From Roseibacillus sp. (GTDB lineage Bacteria; Verrucomicrobiota; Verrucomicrobiia; Verrucomicrobiales; Akkermansiaceae), in contig JBPOGI010000004.1 in NCBI GenBank assembly GCA_051251855.1, positions 384,001 to 448,000 on the forward strand: a stretch of DNA of 64,000 nt. The letters run 5' to 3'. A program made the position numbers and the translations under genes. Below, one piece after another: positions 2,434 through 17,685 of this stretch. The notes under the pieces were generated by a model. It worked only from the letters and a program-made list of their open reading frames with translations, did no database searches and was not told where the DNA came from. Position 1 is the stretch's first letter. Every line of letters begins with the position of its first letter.

Positions 2434-2641
<208 letters not shown>

Positions 2642-2644
<3 letters not shown>

Positions 2645-2667
2645 ACCGCTGATAATTCAGCGGTTTT
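2642..2667. terminator. Hairpin / probable intrinsic terminator after tRNA-Pro and its repeat
   Basis: AAAACCGCTGA-TAAT-TCAGCGGTTTT perfect inverted repeat. Confidence 0.65.
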
Positions 2668-2688
2668 CGTATTTCTAGCGATCTCCTC

Positions 2689-2791
2689 GGAGAGGTGGCC
2701 TTTACTGCCGCCCACCCAACCTCGTCGATCCAACCCCGTCATTTTCCAACTACGGTCACATCACCCTAGCGGCAATCAAAGCCGCCGCTCC
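2689..2791. repeat. REP doublet (REPIN-like), family A, copy 1
   Basis: GGAGAGGTGGCCTTTACTGCCGC ... GCGGCAATCAAAGCCGCCGCTCC inverted ends; homologues at 6250, 7639/7696, 11690, 15377, 17687. Confidence 0.8.
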
Positions 2792-2929
2792 AAAACAAAG
2801 CGGCCGCCGAATCCTTTCGAATCCGGCGGCTGTCAAAACATTCCGATTCCGCACTCGCGGACGAAAGAAACTGACGTGCTATTACCCTTGTTATGAAGAC
2901 GAACCACGGCGTTCAACTCGCGGTTCACA
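2792..2929 (-). ncRNA. Candidate structured small RNA, copy 1
   Basis: Paralogous to 7416-7554 with compensatory stem changes; ends in GCCGCCGGATTC-GAAA-GGATTCGGCGGC plus U-rich tail. 5' end is estimated from the promoter. Confidence 0.72.
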
Positions 2930-2932
2930 GGT

Positions 2933-2961
2933 TCAGACTCTTCACATCACAAACTGTTCAA
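2933..2961 (-). promoter_or_regulatory. Putative ECF sigma factor promoter of sRNA copy 1
   Basis: TTGAAC-N17-GTCTGA; same boxes and spacing at copy 2, while the spacer sequence is largely different. Confidence 0.6.
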
Positions 2962-3228
2962 CTTTTATGAAGTATTTTTTCACGATCCCCAAAAATGAGT
3001 TTGTGATGGTGACAAAATGGTCCAAGTCACTCAATTATGGCTACAGCTCGCCCACCTCAAATTGAGGAAAGCCTGCATTCTCTTATCCGATGATGAGAGT
3101 AAAAACCGTAACCGCCGCCCAAAACCTCGGTAATCCTGATACCTGCTCATTCTCGAATGCCTTTGAAGAGCTCATAAGCTTCACACCTTCCCTGATGTGC
3201 TAGACCGATCTCCTACAAGCCCTCAATC

Positions 3229-4509
3229 TCACGACTTAGCCGCTGCCTCAATCTTCTCCTCGCGCTCATGCTGTTTTCCGAGATAAATGGCGAGGATCCC
3301 CCAAACCACCGCAATGCCAGCTCCTACTAACAGCTTGGCGGACAGATCTAACTTTAGAACACCCTCTGTGCCGAGAAAGACGAAAAACCAGACCCAAAAC
3401 ACGTCTCCCCCTCGATAGATAGTGACGTCAATGAAGGGCTTCGTTTTAAAGCGGGCCTCTTGGTCGACTCCCGTAAAGAGAATCTCCCGCGAAGGCCGTG
3501 TAATCGCGTAGTTTCCGGACTTTCGAAGGGTCTCCAAAATCAAGAAAACAGCGACGGTAGGAATAGTAGAAAAGAGAATGAGCGCACACGCCATAATGAA
3601 AGGGACCATCGCCAAAGCGGTTGCCAGCCCGAACTTGGCAGCAATTCGGTTCGTGGCAAAGAGACCAAGAAAGAAGGTCAACACGTTGACGATGATGTTC
3701 AGAGTCCCGAGAATCTTCTCTCGTTCTGGTCTCTCGTAGACAGAGAGAATATCTTTCTGCGCCAGGTAAAAGAAGGTGCCAATCCCTACGAAAATAAAGA
3801 TAAAACCCGCGATTCCAATCAGACGTTTGTGAAGCAAAAATTCGTTGAATCCTGAGAAAGGATTTCCACTCAGCTTCGTGAACTCTGCAGCCTTGGCACC
3901 AGGCTTGGTATTTTTATCTCTATCAAGAATCCCAATCAAAGGAATCACCACCAATAGAACCGCACTCGTAATGAGCAACTTCACTTCCAGTGGATACGCA
4001 TTGAGATATTTGGTCACCGCAAGAGAGCCTAAAATGGCGCCCGCACTCGCTCCCAAATTGATGAACGCAAAAATTCTTTTGGACTCTGACTTGGAATAGA
4101 GCTGGGACATGAAGCTCCAAAACACCGAAATGTGGAAGAGAGAGAAAACGCTAATCCAAACATAGAAAAACTTCCCTAAAAGCACCCGATCATAGCCGGA
4201 ATACAAGCCCAAGGCAGTCGCAATAAAGGTGAATGCGAAGAAGAGGAAAACCCCAGGAATCAGCCTCTTGAGAGACAAGCGAGCCGCAAAGACATTGTAG
4301 ATGAAGACCGCAACGATTGAAGAAAGAAAGGTGTAGGTCCAAAGCCTGGCCAACTCCGTATCGGTGAATTCACTCGATAACGAGTCCCTCACCGGTTTCG
4401 CGATCATGTAGGATGCCATCAGTAGGAAAATGAAGGCAAAGGAGATGATGGCTCCTTTGAACTCGCTAGGCTCAATCTTGGTAAGCCGTGTGAAAAAGTT
4501 TGGGTGCAT
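3229..4509 (-). CDS. MFS-fold transporter, NTP/NDP exchange (Npt/TLC, AAA) family-like
   Basis: About 12 hydrophobic segments; motifs KPVRDSL, SVFWSFM, RPSREILF, RFKTKPFID..YRGGD. Start chosen at MHPNFF (ORF extends to 4554). Confidence 0.85.
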   Translation of the reverse strand: MHPNFFTRLTKIEPSEFKGAIISFAFIFLLMASYMIAKPVRDSLSSEFTDTELARLWTYTFLSSIVAVFIYNVFAARLSLKRLIPGVFLFFAFTFIATALGLYSGYDRVLLGKFFYVWISVFSLFHISVFWSFMSQLYSKSESKRIFAFINLGASAGAILGSLAVTKYLNAYPLEVKLLITSAVLLVVIPLIGILDRDKNTKPGAKAAEFTKLSGNPFSGFNEFLLHKRLIGIAGFIFIFVGIGTFFYLAQKDILSVYERPEREKILGTLNIIVNVLTFFLGLFATNRIAAKFGLATALAMVPFIMACALILFSTIPTVAVFLILETLRKSGNYAITRPSREILFTGVDQEARFKTKPFIDVTIYRGGDVFWVWFFVFLGTEGVLKLDLSAKLLVGAGIAVVWGILAIYLGKQHEREEKIEAAAKS

Positions 4510-4547
4510 TATTGGATGTTTCTTAAGGGCTAAGCTATGGGCAGAAT

Positions 4548-5327
4548 TTACCAAGGAAGCTTCGAGCCATCATAGTACCAAAGCTGGCCTGACTGCTTGG
4601 GAGTCAGCTCTTCAATGACCTTTTTCAACTTCGGCATCGAATCCTCAGGCTTCAAGTTGCCCCGGTTCGTTCCCATGTCTGTCTGATTGTGCCCCGGCGC
4701 AACCACCGCCACGATGAATCCCTTTTTGTGGAGCTCAAAGTGCAGCGTGCGGGTGAACATATTCAGCCCCGCTTTCGAAACCCGGTAGCCATAAGCACTG
4801 CCCCCCTTTCTGCTGAGGATGCTCGAGCGAGTCGACATATTGATGATCTTCTTCCCCTGAGAAGCGTGCAGGTTCGGCATCAGCGCTTGCGTGACAAAAA
4901 TAGGCCCCATGGTGTTGACCGCGTAGCAGAGCTCCATCTCCTTACGAGTCAGGCTATCGATTCCATTCATCTTCGTCCCAATAGGATTGGGCCCAAAGTA
5001 ACCCGCGTTGTTGATCAGGATATCGAGAGGCTTCCCCTCCAAGGTCTTCGCCATCGCCGCAATGCTCTCTTCCGAGGTCACATCCAACGCCACCACAGTC
5101 GCGCCCGCCTCCTTCAGCTCAACCGCCTCCTCAGGCTTACGAGCAGTTCCGTAGACCAAGTAACCATCGCCCAAGAACTGCTTCGCCAACTCCAAACCCA
5201 AGCCTCTGTTTGCTCCGGTGATTAAAACAGATTTTGGATTCTCGTCAGTTTCCGCTGAATCTTGGCCATGTGCGAGAAAAGGCAGCGAGAGGAAAGCAAG
5301 AAGGCCGCAGAGGTAGGTTTTCATCAT
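4548..5327 (-). CDS. Short-chain dehydrogenase/reductase (CsgA/C-factor-like) with N-terminal signal peptide
   Basis: TGANRGLG, LINNAG, catalytic YRVSK, PGHNQTDMG. Confidence 0.9.
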   Translation of the reverse strand: MMKTYLCGLLAFLSLPFLAHGQDSAETDENPKSVLITGANRGLGLELAKQFLGDGYLVYGTARKPEEAVELKEAGATVVALDVTSEESIAAMAKTLEGKPLDILINNAGYFGPNPIGTKMNGIDSLTRKEMELCYAVNTMGPIFVTQALMPNLHASQGKKIINMSTRSSILSRKGGSAYGYRVSKAGLNMFTRTLHFELHKKGFIVAVVAPGHNQTDMGTNRGNLKPEDSMPKLKKVIEELTPKQSGQLWYYDGSKLPW

Positions 5328-5507
5328 TTTTAAGGTTCTGATTCACTCTACGTGACTGGGATGCGAAAACCTACCCACATTTTCCTGTGAAAAACCCACA
5401 TCCCGCTCCAGACCTGCTTCGCTGTCGAATTGAGAGGAAGGAATGAAGCCGCCCCGCTTGCACAATTCGACATTGGACTCCCTCTCTCCCTGCGCCAGAC
5501 TTCCGAC

Positions 5508-6245
5508 ATGCTTACCCCCTTTCGCACAGTCTTACTTCTCAGCTTACTCATCCTCCAAGCTTGCTCGCAAAGTAACACCACAACCTCAGCCGCCGCCAAA
5601 CTCCTCGGAGCCAACTGGACTACCATCGAGTCCTCCATCGCAGCCCAACGTCAAGCAGGCCACCCCAACTACGACCCCACTTGGCTCTACGTCGTCGATC
5701 CCCGCGCCCAACGCATGCACATCATCAACCGCAAAACCGGCCAGGTGAAAGAAACCTTCCGCTGCGGCACCGGCAAGCGTGGCCTCGGCATCGAAGACGC
5801 TCAAACCCCTCCTGGCTTCTTCACCATGGGCGGAGTCCGCATCGCCAAAAACGGCAACACCGCCATCCAAACCGGCGACTCCAAAAAAGGCGTCAGCGGC
5901 ATCTACGCCGAAATGCTCTATCCCCCTACTCACCCCGATCCAGAACTTCGAGGCATGGTTCCCAACGGAGTCGTCATTCACTCCTACAACCCCGCCGCCA
6001 GCGAAATGCTTCGCCAACGCCGCGCCCAACGCCTCATCGGCCGCGTCCCCTGCACCACCGGCTGCCCCGTCCCCGACCTCGAAGACGCCCCCAAACTCAT
6101 CCCCTACCTCAAGCAATCCGCCGGAAAATTCGATCCCAACGCCAATCCCAACGCCAATCTCCAAGCCCTCATTAACAGCGGCCAAGTGAAGCAATACCAA
6201 CGCAACCAACTCGGAGCCGCCATCTACATCCTCAACCGCCAATAG
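5508..6245 (+). CDS. L,D-transpeptidase (YkuD-like) family lipoprotein
   Basis: Lipobox LQAC; YVVD..AQRMH, CGTGKRG, TPPGFF, VIHS...TTGC (His/Cys catalytic pattern). Confidence 0.7.
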   Translation: MLTPFRTVLLLSLLILQACSQSNTTTSAAAKLLGANWTTIESSIAAQRQAGHPNYDPTWLYVVDPRAQRMHIINRKTGQVKETFRCGTGKRGLGIEDAQTPPGFFTMGGVRIAKNGNTAIQTGDSKKGVSGIYAEMLYPPTHPDPELRGMVPNGVVIHSYNPAASEMLRQRRAQRLIGRVPCTTGCPVPDLEDAPKLIPYLKQSAGKFDPNANPNANLQALINSGQVKQYQRNQLGAAIYILNRQ

Positions 6246-6248
6246 TAA

Positions 6249-6453
6249 CGGAGCGGCGACCTTTACTGTCGCCTGCCCAACCTCGTCCCAAACCACCCCG
6301 TCCTATCCAACCACTGGCCAAAAATCCGACCGCAATAAAGTCCGCCGCTCCCTCACTCAAAAACTCAAATCCACCCCAGTCCGTCCTCCGTGTTCACTCC
6401 CCGACCTCTGCGACTCTGCGTTGAAACTTCCAACCCCGTCCACCCCACCCAAC
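6249..6453. repeat. REPIN family A copy plus CTCTGCG-type repeat; ~200-bp imperfect direct repeat of 7695-7890
   Basis: GGAGCGGCGACCTTTACTGTCGCC...CCGCCGCTCC-tcactcaa-...GTCCGTCCTCYGTGTTCACTCC...GCGACTCTGCGTTGAAA...TCCAACCC shared with 7695-7890. Confidence 0.8.
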
Positions 6454-6470
6454 CCTTCAAACCCAGCCCC

Positions 6471-7391
6471 ATGAAATATCTCTTCTCACTTCTCCTCATC
6501 CTCCCAACCTCTCTTCTAGCCCAGGGTTGGGAGAAACTGGAGCGCTGCAAACTCGAAACAGATCGCTACGTGAACGGCGATAGTTTTTTCGTAAGCCACA
6601 AAGGCGACACCCACAACTTTCGTCTCTATCTCTGCGAAGTTCCCGATAAAACCAATAAATACCCAGACCGGATCGAAATGCAGGAAAACATCTTTGGAGC
6701 CGAGGAAAAACACCTTCTCGAAATTGGCGAAGAAGCCGCCGAGTTCACCGAGAAGACTTTGCGCCGATCCTTTACCGTCTACACCCAATGGGAAGATGCT
6801 GGCGGAGCCAATGACCGCTACTATGCCTATCTCATCTCGCGCGACGGCAAAGACCTCACCAAAGAACTCACCAGCAATGGCTTTTCGACCGCTTATCAGG
6901 AGCAGAGCGAATACTTTGATGGCACCAGCGCCGGTAAACTCTTCCGAGAAATCAAACGCCTCCAGCAAGAAGCCCGAAAAAAGAAAGTCGGCATTTGGGA
7001 ATTCTCCACCCTTCCCCAAGAAGCCCCCCTTCCTCCCGCCCCCTCTGACCCCGTCGTGTTAGAAGGGTCCATTCCAGCCACCGAAATCGAAGCTATCAAG
7101 GAGATGCTGGGCCAAACCGCACTTATTTCCGGAGAAGTTTCGGGCGTAGGCCAGACCCCATCAGGATCGATTACCTTCATCAATTTCGAAGGCAGTGAGT
7201 TCACCGCCGTAGTATTCGCAGATGACCGCGAAGCGATAGAAACGGAACTAGGAACTACCATCAAGGAGGCTCTTAAAGGAAGAGCCATCACTCTTCAGGG
7301 TGAAATTTCCACTCACCGAGACATCCCCCAAATCAAGATCACCGACAAGGCTCAGATTAATCCAGAGGCCAAAGTTGTAGAGTCAGAGTAA
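6471..7391 (+). CDS. Secreted thermonuclease (SNase) family protein with C-terminal OB-fold
   Basis: NGDSFFV, FRLY..EVP, RYYAY, QQEARKKKVGIW; Pro linker; OB-fold TFINF..FTAVVF...IPQIKI. Confidence 0.8.
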   Translation: MKYLFSLLLILPTSLLAQGWEKLERCKLETDRYVNGDSFFVSHKGDTHNFRLYLCEVPDKTNKYPDRIEMQENIFGAEEKHLLEIGEEAAEFTEKTLRRSFTVYTQWEDAGGANDRYYAYLISRDGKDLTKELTSNGFSTAYQEQSEYFDGTSAGKLFREIKRLQQEARKKKVGIWEFSTLPQEAPLPPAPSDPVVLEGSIPATEIEAIKEMLGQTALISGEVSGVGQTPSGSITFINFEGSEFTAVVFADDREAIETELGTTIKEALKGRAITLQGEISTHRDIPQIKITDKAQINPEAKVVESE

Positions 7392-7415
7392 CTTCATTCT
7401 TAGACTCCTCCCCCT

Positions 7416-7554
7416 AAAACAAAGCAGCCGCCGGACTCTTGCGAATCCGGCGGCTTGTCAAAACATTCGATTCCGCACTCGCGGCCGAAAGAAACTGACT
7501 TGCTACTTACCCTTGTTATGAAGACGAACAGCGGCGTTCAACTCGCTGCTCAAA
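7416..7554 (-). ncRNA. Candidate structured small RNA, copy 2
   Basis: Paralogue of 2792-2929; terminator AGCCGCCGGATTC-GCAA-GAGTCCGGCGGCT plus U-rich tail. Confidence 0.72.
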
Positions 7555-7557
7555 GGT

Positions 7558-7586
7558 TAAGACTCCCAAGTAGCCAACTCGTTCAA
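7558..7586 (-). promoter_or_regulatory. Putative ECF sigma factor promoter of sRNA copy 2
   Basis: TTGAAC-N17-GTCTTA. Confidence 0.6.
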
Positions 7587-7638
7587 ACAATTGGAAACTT
7601 TTTCATTTTTCCAACCCGAAGAGCCAAATGGCCCCCAT

Positions 7639-7890
7639 GGAGGGGCGACCTTTATTGTCGCCCACGCAACCTCGTCCTCTCCAACGATATCCCTCGGAGC
7701 GGCGACCTTTACTGTCGCCCATCCCACCCCGTCGAATACAACCTCGTCATTCTACAGCCACCATCACACGACCCCGCTTCAATCAAAGCCGCCGCTCCGT
7801 CACTCAAACTCAAAAACCATCGGTCCGTCCTCTGTGTTCACTCCGCGACTCTGCGTTGAAAAAAGTCCAACCCAGTCCAGCCATCCCACC
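7639..7890. repeat. REP half-site plus REPIN family A copy plus CTCTGCG-type repeat
   Basis: GGAGGGGCGACCTTTATTGTCGCC at 7639; GGAGCGGCGACCTTTACTGTCGCC at 7696 ... AAAGCCGCCGCTCC near 7798. Confidence 0.8.
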
Positions 7891-7942
7891 TAAAAAGACA
7901 TCACCTCGGCGACAATCAAGTCCGTCTCTTCAACGCGATTCT

Positions 7943-9121
7943 TCACTCCGCAAAGAGTCGAAACGCCACCCCCAGCGGAGCAGCTTCCTCATCGTCCCAG
8001 CGAAAATTAAACTCTGCCGCCCCACTCCGCTGACCCACCGCCACAACATCGAACCGAGTGAAATTCTCTTGAGCTAGGTCGTATTCCAAACGCCCAAAAA
8101 CCGTCGGCTCAAAAGTCTGTCCTCCCCCTTCAAGACGAGACACACCCCGCAACTCGATGACCTGTTTTCCACCTTCACGCGACACCTCCCTCACCGTCCA
8201 ACTCCCCTCTCGAAAATACTCTTTTCCTGCATTGCACTGCCCACGCGCACAATCCTTCAACGCCTGCTGCGAAATCTTCTTCACCAAAGATTGCGGCAAG
8301 GTCTTCGTCTCCCCTTTTGCCACTCGAAACAAGTCCACTTCTTCTCGTTTCAAATCAAGGAACCCCAAGTTCACCGGTCGTTGATTCCTCTCTGTATGCG
8401 GCAATCGATTCTCGCCACGTGGCAAATCTCGATACCCCAACTGCAACTTCAACCCACCCTTTTTCGGTTCTGCCCCCACAAAAAATGGCAGCTCATTTTC
8501 GGGCACGGCCTTCATCGCCTCTCCCCGCTTTCGGAATTCTAACAACGCCTTTTTCAGAATCTCAATGGTCCGGTCTCGATCCACCCACGCAAAACCACCC
8601 GCCAGATACTCTCCCTCCGCCGTCATACAGTAGGTCCCCTGGCAAGTAGCAGGCTTCTCCGGAATCAAATTATCAGGAGCATTCCGCCAATACGTCTCAA
8701 AGAGATTCGTGCTCTCAATCGTTTTCAACCACTGGCGATTAAACCAATCCGGTGGACGGAGATCCCAACACTCATCCGCCACACACACGAACTCCTGCGC
8801 CAACTTCTGAACCTGCGGGTCTGACCAGACCTCCCAGCGTCCCACGATACCATTATTTCAAGTCTCCCCCGCCGGATGCCCATTCATGGCCCACAACAGA
8901 ACCGGCCGCCCCAGCTCCCGTGCCTCCTCCGCCGCAAATTCCAACTCCCGATGCCAGCGAATCTGCCGCCAAGCCAGCTCATCCCCCTTCGGAAAAATGA
9001 ACTCCTGCCACTTGCTCAAATTCTCCGCATCCACCTCAGGGACCTCCCACTTCTCGCCTGATTCCTTTCCAAAAAGAACACCCACCAACAGGAGCCAAAA
9101 AATAAGAAATCGTCTCAACAT
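7943..9121 (-). CDS. Secreted thioredoxin-fold protein with in-frame TGA (8858-8860); candidate selenoprotein, 392 aa if read through
   Basis: ORFs 8858-9121 and 7943-8845 are in one frame, separated only by TGA: ...RPVLLWAMNGHPAGET*NNGIVGRWEVWSDPQVQKLAQEFVCVADE; hairpin 26 nt downstream of TGA. Confidence 0.75.
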
Positions 9122-11768: not shown

Positions 11769-12158
11769 ATGCCTTTCGAACTTGCCAGTGACTACGAGCC
11801 AGCCGGCGACCAGGCCCAGGCCATCGCCAAGCTCACCAAGTCCATTGAGGCCGGCAACAAGCACCAGACCCTCCTCGGGGTCACGGGCTCGGGCAAGACT
11901 TTCACCATGGCGAACGTGATCCGGAACATCGGCAAGCCGACCCTGATCATGTCGCACAACAAGACCCTCGCGGCTCAGCTCTACTCCGAGTTCAAGAACT
12001 TCTTCCCCAACAACGCGGTCGAATAATTCGGCTACTACCAACCCGAGAACTACATCCCGCGCTCCCACATCCTATTCGCAGCCAAAAAGTTCGTCACCAA
12101 TAGCAACAGACTGAAGGACTCGGTGCGCGCCATTAAAAAAGAGTGCGCCGAACAAGTA
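11769..12158 (+). pseudogene. uvrB: uvrB 5' fragment (85 intact codons, TAA, then decayed and deleted remnant)
   Basis: Identical in amino acids to UvrB 1-85 at 15487; TAC>TAA at 12024; then FGYYQPENYIPR and SHILFAAKKFVT...AIKKECAEQV matching UvrB ~91-102 and 238-269. Confidence 0.93.
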
Positions 12159-15486: not shown

Positions 15487-17685
15487 ATGCCTTTCGAACT
15501 TGCCAGCGACTACGAGCCTGCCGGCGACCAGGCCCAGGCCATCGCCAAGCTCACCAAATCCATTGAAGCGGGGAACAAGCACCAGACGCTTCTGGGAGTC
15601 ACGGGCTCGGGCAAAACCTTCACCATGGCGAATGTGATCCGGAACATCGGCAAGCCGACCTTGATCATGTCGCACAACAAGACCCTCGCGGCTCAACTCT
15701 ACTCCGAGTTCAAAAACTTCTTCCCCAACAATGCGGTCGAGTACTTCGTTTCCTACTTCGACTACTACCAACCCGAGGCCTACATCCCTCGTTCAGACAC
15801 CTACATTGAGAAGGACTCTTCCATCAACGAGGAAATTGAACGAATGCGCCTCTCCACGATGGGCTCCGTCCTCACCCGCGAAGACGTCATTGTGATCGCC
15901 TCCGTCTCCTGCATTTATGGTTTAGGCAGTCCCGATGATTACGAAAGCGCAATGCTTCCCGTCTGGGTCGGCAAAGAAATCGGCCGCGACGAATTCCTCA
16001 AAGAGCTCGTCAACCTCCTCTTCGAGCGCAACGACATCGCCTTTGGCCGTGGCAAATTCCGCGTGCGGGGCGACGTCGTCGAGATCCATCCCGCCTACCT
16101 CGACGAGACCGCTATCCGCGTGGAATTCTTCGGCGACGAAATCGAACGCATCTCCAGCATCGACTCTCTGCGCGGCACCGTCATTGACCGCATCGAGTCC
16201 CACACCTTCTTCCCCGCTAAGCAGTTCGTCACCGACCGCGCCAAACTCAAGGACGCCATGCACGCCATCAAGAAGGAATGCGCCGAGCAGGTGGCTGCCT
16301 TCGAAAAGGCAGGAAAACTCATCGAAGCCCAACGCCTCAAGATGCGCACCGACTACGACCTCGAGATGATGGAGGAGATGGGATTCTGCCAAGGTATTGA
16401 GAACTACTCCCGCCACCTCACCGGCCGCCCACCCGGCGCTCGACCCTACACCCTGTTAGACTTCTTCGCCTCCAAGGACTTCATGCTCATGGTGGACGAG
16501 AGCCACGTCTCCATCCCTCAAATCGGCGGCATGTATGAGGGCGATCGCAGCCGCAAGACCGTCCTCGTCGACCACGGATTTCGCCTCCCCAGCGCCCTCG
16601 ACAACCGCCCGCTCAGATTCCCCGAATTCATGGAACAGACCATGCAACGTCTCTACGTCTCCGCCACTCCCAAGGTCTTCGAACTCGCCAACTCCCGACC
16701 CGACAACCACAGCTACCTTGACATCAAACGCCAAGCCCAGGAAAGCGGCCTCGACATTCTCACCTTAAAAAAGATGAAAGTCCGCACCAGCGGCAGCGAC
16801 GAATCCGTAGAAGACTTCGACCCCACCAAGCGCAGCACCCCTCTCGTAGTCGAACAAATCATTAGACCTACTGGACTCCTCGACCCCATCCTCCACCTCA
16901 AGCCCCTCAAAGGCCAAATCGACGAAACCATCGAACTCTGCCGCCAACGAGTCGAAAAAAACGAGCGCGTCCTCGTCACCACCCTCACCAAAAAAACCGC
17001 CGAAGACCTCACCGACTACCTCGTTGGAGTCGACCTCAAGGTGCGCTACCTTCACTCCGACATCGACGCCGTCGAACGGGTCGAAATCCTACGCGCCCTC
17101 CGCGCCGCCGAGTTCGATATCCTCATCGGCATCAACCTTCTCCGCGAAGGACTCGATCTCCCCGAAGTTTCCCTCGTCTGCATTCTCGATGCCGACAAAG
17201 AAGGCTTCCTCCGCAACGAGACCTCCCTCATCCAGACCGCGGGCCGCGCCGCCCGCCACGTCAATGGCGAGTGCGTCCTCTTCTGCGACAAGATCACCGA
17301 CTCCATCCAAAAACTCATCGACGTCACCGAATACCGTCGCGCCAAACAACAGGAATACAACGAGAAGCACGGCATCACCCCCCAAAGCGTGATCCGCAAA
17401 GTGCAAGAGAGCCTCCACACCTACGACGAGACCGCCAGCAAAGGTCGCAAAATCAACGCAGGACTCGTCGCCGAGGACGACATGCTTTACAACGTCACCG
17501 AGGTCCTCAACGAACTCGAAGGCGAGATGCAAGAAGCCGCCAGCAAACTCGAATTCGAACGCGCCGCCCACCTCCGCGACCAAATCAAACAGCTCAAAGA
17601 AAAAGCCGGCCTCACCGACAAACCCCGTCCTGACAAGTCAGTCACCTTCAAAAAGCCAAAGGCCAAACGAGCAAAAAAGAAGTAA
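15487..17685 (+). CDS. uvrB: Excinuclease ABC subunit B
   Basis: [59 protein letters not shown]-terminal UVR domain FERAAHLRD. Confidence 0.98.
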   Translation: MPFELASDYEPAGDQAQAIAKLTKSIEAGNKHQTLLGVTGSGKTFTMANVIRNIGKPTLIMSHNKTLAAQLYSEFKNFFPNNAVEYFVSYFDYYQPEAYIPRSDTYIEKDSSINEEIERMRLSTMGSVLTREDVIVIASVSCIYGLGSPDDYESAMLPVWVGKEIGRDEFLKELVNLLFERNDIAFGRGKFRVRGDVVEIHPAYLDETAIRVEFFGDEIERISSIDSLRGTVIDRIESHTFFPAKQFVTDRAKLKDAMHAIKKECAEQVAAFEKAGKLIEAQRLKMRTDYDLEMMEEMGFCQGIENYSRHLTGRPPGARPYTLLDFFASKDFMLMVDESHVSIPQIGGMYEGDRSRKTVLVDHGFRLPSALDNRPLRFPEFMEQTMQRLYVSATPKVFELANSRPDNHSYLDIKRQAQESGLDILTLKKMKVRTSGSDESVEDFDPTKRSTPLVVEQIIRPTGLLDPILHLKPLKGQIDETIELCRQRVEKNERVLVTTLTKKTAEDLTDYLVGVDLKVRYLHSDIDAVERVEILRALRAAEFDILIGINLLREGLDLPEVSLVCILDADKEGFLRNETSLIQTAGRAARHVNGECVLFCDKITDSIQKLIDVTEYRRAKQQEYNEKHGITPQSVIRKVQESLHTYDETASKGRKINAGLVAEDDMLYNVTEVLNELEGEMQEAASKLEFERAAHLRDQIKQLKEKAGLTDKPRPDKSVTFKKPKAKRAKKK

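Follow-up and report, generated by a model that had tools for sequence, protein, structure and literature searches.

A multi-copy family of predicted small regulatory RNA genes sharing an ECF-type promoter in Roseibacillus and related Verrucomicrobia

Two intergenic loci, A and B, in a 64,000-nucleotide stretch of a Roseibacillus sp. genome (contig JBPOGI010000004.1, positions 384,001 to 448,000; hereafter the window, G000:C8:384001-448000 in our numbering of the source genome, G000) are, judged by their sequence, a derived, Roseibacillus-specific subtype of a multi-copy family. This family of small regulatory RNA genes, found in free-living Akkermansiaceae-type Verrucomicrobia, is apparently undescribed. 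A and B are probably paralogous genes for trans-acting small RNAs (sRNAs) of ~135 nt that are driven by an envelope-stress sigma factor and block the start regions of mRNAs. The sequence of the family, its potential for structure, its distribution, the sharing of one promoter among its members and its complementarity to start regions are established here.

Architecture of the two window copies

A and B, both on the minus strand, are 89% identical across 150 nt (E value 6e-49), and a preliminary description of this DNA, made from its letters alone, had already recognized them as diverged copies. Each consists of a TTGAAC-N17-GTCT promoter of the extracytoplasmic function (ECF) type, a first hairpin, an unpaired linker, a second hairpin and a terminator with a U tail:

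2956..2961, minus strand: copy A -35 box TTGAAC, ECF-type; score 30.8 with a position weight matrix (PWM) derived from family promoters, ranking third in the genome
2935..2938, minus strand: copy A -10 box GTCT, separated from GAAC by 17 nt
2792..2928, minus strand: copy A, predicted ~137-nt sRNA; 5' end placed at about 2927-2929; folding z score -3.56
2900..2927, minus strand: copy A hairpin 1, loop AGUUGAACGC at 2918-2909; 9 pairs, pairing kept in 100% of cells across 14 copies
2876..2899, minus strand: copy A linker, anti-AUG (CUUCAU) and derived seed AACAAGGGUAA
2832..2875, minus strand: copy A hairpin 2, cap CCGC-GAGU-GCGG
2792..2830, minus strand: copy A predicted intrinsic terminator and U tail; two-sided changes in 7/13 pairs
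7581..7586, minus strand: copy B -35 box TTGAAC; PWM score 29.0
7560..7563, minus strand: copy B -10 box GTCT
7416..7553, minus strand: copy B, predicted ~138-nt sRNA; 5' end placed at about 7552-7554; folding z score -4.79
7525..7552, minus strand: copy B hairpin 1, loop 7543-7534
7500..7524, minus strand: copy B linker, anti-AUG and seed AACAAGGGUAAG
7457..7499, minus strand: copy B hairpin 2, from the fold
7416..7455, minus strand: copy B predicted intrinsic terminator and U tail, from the stem search

The stem differences, the linker, the CCGC-GAGU-GCGG motif, the GAAA and GCAA terminator loops and the two GAAC-N17-GTCT promoters with unlike spacers (TTGAAC at 2961-2956 and 7586-7581, GTCT at 2938-2935 and 7563-7560) are all present as first described, the motif being the mere tip of a ~44-nt hairpin 2. 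The supposed invariance of the hairpin 1 loop AGUUGAACGC and of the GNRA terminator loops holds between A and B only; other copies have UUGGAACAC loops and GAGU or GGGG terminator loops. The plus strand of A folds at z = -1.41. The terminators of A and B are the two longest stems detected across 2500-7900, and a sigma-70 promoter scan finds no site at either copy. Because AACAAGG of the linker is paired with the U tail in the full-length minimum-energy fold, the linker of A and B may be partly closed.

Copy A has an MFS gene on one side and tRNA-Pro on the other, the nearest gene in its own direction being 690 nt away, and B is convergent with an SNase-domain gene. Repetitive extragenic palindromic (REP)-like repeats of several families (window 2688-2791, 6249-6405 and 7638-7849) flank both copies and also occur between them. 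In another genome, G030, two A/B-type copies stand in tandem, 271 nt apart, and the repeats may be linked to the separation of such a pair here. Beside A, 29 nt of the tRNA-Pro 3' end recur without mismatch (2492-2520 and 2616-2644) on either side of a ~95-nt insert; a similar insert is found on one contig from an RNA sequencing run. In the four RNA sequencing runs compared, contigs match the tRNA alone and cover neither A nor B, and the organism itself did not show up in these runs.

A family well beyond two copies

The preliminary description treated A and B as a pair of siblings, which proves far too small a count. BLAST-type searches detect copies in 7 of 9 genomes of the genus, and G000 itself has five, A to E. 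Copy C (C1:1011366, plus strand) is 67% identical; D (C1:1225583, plus strand, divergent from the ECF sigma gene g0879) and E (C6:206358, minus strand, upstream of a SurA/PpiD-like gene) were exposed by a promoter scan of G000. The stems of D and E are unlike those of A and B, the layout is alike, and the linker core is AAGGGTGAACA.

The search pattern TTGAAC-N17-KTCT-N35-65-RGGGTRAA matches 87 of 261 genomes of the taxonomic family, with up to six copies per genome, often in tandem; the reversed control matches 6, and a few of the matches look like chance. By genus, the pattern occurs in 34/35 (g8), 18/31 (g15), 16/35 (g11), 7/35 (g5), 0/36 (g3) and 0/20 (g20) genomes; the family (f1) may be GTDB Akkermansiaceae, g3 Akkermansia and g8 Luteolibacter. 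None of 183 genomes outside the family matches one similar strict pattern, which diverged members could escape. Exact-pattern scans of sequence collections are too narrow, true members being one of three genome matches and none of 57 metagenome matches. Across the family the stems vary and the linker core AAGGGUGAAC is kept; its positions are built into the pattern, and the flanks UUUUCAUGU and ACAGCA lie outside it. The A/B subtype carries the derived core AACAAGGGUAA in the linker and UGAACG in the loop.

Among 104 distinct elements, hairpin 1 begins 7 or 8 nt past GTCT in 65, and a crude finder detects a terminator for 91, the median length being 133 nt. All 85 strong-terminator elements fold at z < -2, a value inflated by selection on the terminator. 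When 30 loci were picked solely as surA/ppiD-like orthologues, independently of the pattern, 12 had the promoter and element upstream, 11 of these with the full core; the 12 span g1 (Roseibacillus), g8, g9, g11, g15 and g20, and the surA/ppiD-upstream position probably represents the ancestral locus. Each of the four possible arrangements of flanking genes is seen, which fits trans action. In tandem arrays each element has its own promoter. The promoter and the hairpin 2 cap are kept in g11, where CCGC-GAGU-GCGG becomes CCAC-GAGU-GUGG.

The covariation first noticed between A and B extends to other members. An alignment of 14 copies keeps pairing in 100% of the cells of hairpin 1 and in 97% of those of the terminator, and 10 pairs change on both sides, giving 30 such cells (0/500 shuffles as high; slid controls 0-10); since the copies are kin, these counts are supportive and give no true probability. 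The lower stem of hairpin 2 (columns 70-74/92-96) is out of register in alignment A3, where it is 48% paired, and the covariation claim leaves that stem out.

At Rfam 15 gathering thresholds, only tRNAs are matched in the window and in 20 family loci, in keeping with the first reading of the RNAs as an unrecognized family. No description of such an RNA was found in the literature covered, which excludes subscription papers. Terms for the family do not occur in the main text of two 2026 genome-language-model preprints either, whose supplements, outside our view, might list it.

Promoter and candidate sigma factor

With a PWM built from 93 family promoters, the five RNA copies are the top five promoter sites in G000, a ranking that is partly circular. 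The next sites precede a 68-aa open reading frame (ORF), an OmpA-domain gene, an NlpC/P60-like gene and a gene with a PEP-CTERM-like tail. A 140-aa anti-sigma-like gene that has no sigma factor beside it (G000:C1:166556-166978, minus strand) immediately precedes the OmpA-domain gene.

G000 has 26 Sigma70_r4_2 matches over the cut-off, several of which are not sigma factors. One gene, g1214 (G000:C1:1686792-1687394), has the NCBIfam model TIGR02939 (RpoE) as its best match, and is called RpoE-like rather than RpoE because its score of 126.5 is below the cut-off of 236.15. Its best PDB matches are the AlgU-type 6in7 and sigma-E 1or7, and it adjoins g1213, an anti-sigma candidate on the basis of gene order.

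It is well established that an ECF sigma factor can be recognized as the reader of a promoter when that promoter stands before the gene for the factor itself. The family promoter, with its 17-nt spacing, lies before 12 of 30 g1214 orthologues; in control gene sets it lies before 1/30 (g0879) and 1/30, 0/30 and 0/16 (three others). The RNA pattern is present in 17 of 38 genomes with g1214 (21 of 38 on all evidence) versus 0 of 22 without it. As a test of prediction, five further RNA-positive g15 genomes all had g1214, three of them with the promoter. On these comparative grounds the promoter is likely linked to the RpoE-like sigma factor g1214, and the ECF control first proposed from the promoter sequence thereby gains support. 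For reference, the E. coli sigma-E -35 element is GGAACTT (PMC3326320), and the Fusobacterium sigma-E elements are AAC (-35) and GTCWAA (-10) (PMC9546586). The DxxR rule is not used as evidence, as PMC3397946 ties its D to -12G, which is common to both promoter types.

Seed and predicted targets

In G000 (3546 genes from our own caller), a Shine-Dalgarno (SD)-like motif precedes 1.6% of called genes, start regions are G-poor, and the second codon is AAA or AAG in 886 genes. Reverse-complemented, the linker reads as just such a G-poor start followed by an AAA/AAG codon, and the family core is mostly unpaired in folds. Pairing was scored by duplex energies with our own accessibility term. For the B and D linkers, pairing is stronger at start regions than in upstream windows, which is true of none of 40 shuffles; this preference is partly expected because the linker contains CAU. 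The idea that the linker is antisense to start-codon regions is supported, as seed matches do occur in 5' untranslated regions (UTRs). What is conserved is AAGGGU(GAAC) rather than the loop, or CUUCAUAAC by itself.

The 5' UTR of g1214 itself is one candidate target. There the consensus seed beats dinucleotide shuffles in 7/23 genomes of RNA-bearing genera and in 0/6 others (control sets: g0879 0/18, ppiD 1/19, fadL 1/19), loci without a usable ATG having been dropped. The matching UTRs carry GTTCACCCC in g8, CACCCTTAC in g15 (p <= 0.02 in 3/5 new genomes) and CACCCTTTGT or CCCTTGTT in g1, where they match E (3/4, p <= 0.02). The g1214 UTRs of g9, g11 and g20 have no significant seed match. 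For A and B the match is significant in G061.

In the g1214 loci of g8 (L459-L465) and in L295/L296, the seed-complementary GTTCAC often stands exactly 6-7 nt past a sigma-70-like -10 box, at the predicted mRNA 5' end. A start-site preference for GTTCAC may be an alternative to selection by the sRNAs.

Surface-polymer genes provide the other candidates in Roseibacillus. The NDP-sugar epimerase gene g1563 pairs with the consensus linker at -39.9 kcal/mol versus a background of -12.3 +/- 3.4, an outlier of ~8 standard deviations in G000, and its start region in G089 is complementary to sibling D at 23/24 nt. The WcaJ-like priming glycosyltransferase gene g0045 has repeated GTTCA sites in varying arrangements (p <= 0.05 in 5/8 orthologues, and in 5/6 of those in g1). 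One to three such sites occur in the WcaJ-like 5' UTRs of 5/6 Roseibacillus (g1) genomes, and two or more are found in 7/3541 G000 genes. The PEP-CTERM gene g1395 is the best match of the window copies (rank 1 for B and 4 for A; rank 3 with accessibility), with a second site for the loop; GTTCAC is kept in 4/5 close orthologues and in a paralogue. As a separate observation, a TTCAAG-N5-CTTGA inverted repeat (L297) upstream of g1563 is conserved in four Roseibacillus genomes and is a possible transcription-factor site.

A MicA/RybB-like set of outer membrane protein (OMP) targets does not emerge from these data, in which no general enrichment of signal-peptide or outer-membrane mRNAs was found. 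Ranking by whole-linker duplexes, hairpin arm included, gives no signal-peptide enrichment. Of five real start-region matches found outside the genus, four were to products that looked secreted. Pairing energies do not support a general targeting of mRNAs for PEP-CTERM or secreted proteins.

Several observations weigh against the proposed circuit. The autoregulatory site is missing before G000's own g1214, before the other g1 orthologues and before all g8 orthologues examined. Related genomes are not independent, so that p-values are overstated, and start codons come from the same caller as the gene set. The start regions of G000 are only modestly enriched in the seed (33 versus 13.5, 2.3-fold; 3/150 permutations as high), and PEP-CTERM or signal-peptide genes show no shift in pairing energy (19/54 versus 32%). 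A and B match the g1214 UTR no better than shuffles in G000 (p 0.17-0.19) or G030. Conservation of individual matches is narrow: that of the epimerase is kept in 4/28 orthologues, all close Roseibacillus, the A/B-specific match to g1395 is lost in orthologues, and FadL was rejected as a conserved target with a match in 1/26 orthologues.

Alternative explanations

It may be that the RNAs are real and ECF-driven but serve as CsrB-like decoys for a protein, for example one with an RNA recognition motif (RRM), through AAGGGU or UGAAC, the UTR matches being secondary. The core is conserved far more than any single target match, the RNAs are multi-copy, UGAAC recurs in the loops of A, B and D, and RRM proteins are found in 5/5 genomes. 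However, the UTRs hold the complement of the core and not the core itself, a near-perfect 23/24-nt duplex is predicted with the epimerase start, and CsrA, the partner of the CsrB and RsmZ decoys, was found in 0/5 genomes (positive control detected in 3/14). We regard decoys as unlikely, though the best of the alternatives.

A cis-acting attenuator or leader of the surA/ppiD-like gene, of which A, B and the rest would be duplicated copies, is improbable. The gene is directly downstream, in the same direction, of 18/104 elements, and the U tail of copy E is weak, but a convergent gene faces 31/104 elements and tandem arrays have one promoter per element. Both the convergence of B with the SNase gene and the 690 nt that separate A from its next co-oriented gene also speak against a leader; alternative antiterminators were sought in minimum-energy folds alone.

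About as improbable is a core that acts as an SD mimic, binding the 16S anti-SD and parking 30S subunits under stress. The consensus linker and the 16S 3' end do pair at about -15 kcal/mol in 5/5 genomes, but this value is nothing unusual, since better-scoring sites exist elsewhere in the 16S; the copy B linker reaches merely -7 to -9, and SD use is rare in G000. The anti-SD region at the 16S 3' end of G081 (L293) reads GATCATCTCCTTT, and that of four other genomes GATCACCTCCTTT.

A different reader of the promoter, the other RpoE-like sigma factor g0879, would leave the RNA mechanism unchanged. D is divergent from g0879 in 4 Roseibacillus loci, and an orthologue is present in 34/40 family genomes. 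As cognate sigma factor it is nevertheless disfavoured, and very improbable, given the promoter at 1/30 of its loci versus 12/30 for g1214, a nominal co-occurrence p of 0.067 versus 1e-4 in the same 40 genomes, and a genome (G041) that has g0879 but in which neither g1214 nor an RNA copy was found.

Finally, a small-peptide gene, antitoxin RNA or non-functional repeat, to which the AUG at the start of some g8 copies, the 10-residue ORF of a few and the REP-like repeats flanking both window copies might point, can be dismissed as hardly credible: peptide coding is rejected for want of a conserved ORF on either strand (an ATG is in frame with the internal ATGTAA in 4/53 elements, ORF lengths are scattered, and antisense ORFs are anywhere between about 10 and 92 aa long), and promoter spacing, synteny and covariation are conserved.

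Comparison with known systems

As proposed here, the family works like MicV, VrrA and FoxI without being homologous to them and is built like the csRNAs and FopS; by sequence it is a member of none. The sigma-E-dependent sRNAs MicV and VrrA of Vibrio cholerae and MicA, RybB and MicL of E. coli (PMC10335731, PMC5736990) likewise have an RpoE-type promoter, several sRNAs with one pairing sequence, and repression near start codons. MicV and VrrA, which have a pairing sequence in common, reduce the level of rpoE mRNA (PMC10335731), a negative feedback that is also predicted here. Those sRNAs need Hfq, whereas Hfq was found in 0/5 of the present genomes (positive control detected in 5/14). They also share no sequence or Rfam match with the present family, which differs further in its internal seed between two hairpins, its true paralogues (up to six per genome) and in that no OMP focus emerges among its predicted targets.

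FoxI of Fusobacterium nucleatum (PMC9546586) is a sigma-E sRNA in an Hfq-less phylum, and its GTCWAA/AAC promoter is close to TTGAAC-N17-GTCT. It is a single sRNA in a regulon of > 100 genes, whereas the best sites in G000 are five sRNAs and about four protein genes. The streptococcal csRNAs (PMC3091779) are also multi-copy, under one regulator and its regulon's strongest promoters, without Hfq, and have an unpaired anti-start-region stretch with CAU between stem-loops. They differ in CiaRH two-component control and an anti-SD seed; the present family has an ECF-type promoter, three hairpins and a G-rich seed, AAGGGU, for C-rich SD-less starts (CiaR genes were not searched for). The FopS family of Bacteroides thetaiotaomicron (PMC11697453) similarly comprises paralogous sRNAs, which pair close to start codons in a phylum that lacks Hfq and has RRM proteins, but it has housekeeping-sigma promoters, a 5' single-stranded seed plus terminator only, and SusC targets, and is listed in Rfam according to that paper.

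Other features of the genome

A second, unrelated tandem sRNA family lies behind an ECF operon at G000:C11:235031-235480, with a different promoter and the linker GTTGTTGTT. No 8-mer is more enriched in the start regions of G000 than the complement of that linker, ACAACAAC (16 occurrences against 3.4 expected, with a peak at -20 to 0), which points to targets of this family.

Within the window, two called ORFs at 7943-9121 (minus strand) are one frame of 392 codons with a hydrophobic N-terminus, split by a single TGA in GHPAGET*NNG, a candidate selenoprotein; the 71 nt past the UGA fold no better than shuffles. A short, uvrB-like ORF at 11769-12026, with an N-terminus of the helicase type, duplicates the beginning of a full-length gene located 3.7 kb downstream (15487-17685). 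Between the two is a 933-aa repeat protein.

Proposed mechanism and significance

We infer transcription, sigma dependence, repression and the stress trigger from the sequence comparisons above. Very probably, each copy is transcribed from its own ECF promoter to its own terminator. Stress would free g1214 from the neighbouring anti-sigma candidate g1213, as gene order suggests, and g1214, the likely reader of the promoter in view of the autoregulatory sites of its orthologues and the co-occurrence, would then transcribe all siblings. There is good reason to expect that the linker pairs with C-rich, SD-less starts (ACCC...AUGAA) and blocks initiation without Hfq. That the sigma factor's own mRNA is one family-wide target, closing a negative feedback loop, is less secure, with the balance slightly in its favour. 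Further targets in Roseibacillus would be mRNAs for polysaccharide synthesis and for PEP-CTERM proteins, to which siblings D and E give the best matches, so that pairing would damp both sigma synthesis and surface-polymer synthesis. A and B, with their shifted seed, probably have a partly different target set.

A more speculative extension, which we hold doubtful, is an ECF sigma factor with a mainly RNA output. Its regulon would be dominated by expanding paralogous sRNAs with a G-rich anti-ACCC seed and no Hfq, and the seed would have co-evolved with the sigma 5' UTR across genera. In A and B the seed would be split between loop (UGAACG) and linker (AAGGGU) for two-site binding.

The literature covered says next to nothing about post-transcriptional control in Verrucomicrobia, and the family offers a testable circuit in cultured genera, with a sigma factor, a promoter, sibling sRNAs, a seed and candidate targets. 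If the proposed circuit is correct, it would extend the sRNA arm of sigma-E to the Planctomycetes-Verrucomicrobia-Chlamydiae (PVC) superphylum and would show sRNA action where neither SD pairing nor Hfq is used. It would also tie the synthesis of surface polysaccharides to envelope stress in marine and soil bacteria that are abundant degraders of polysaccharides.

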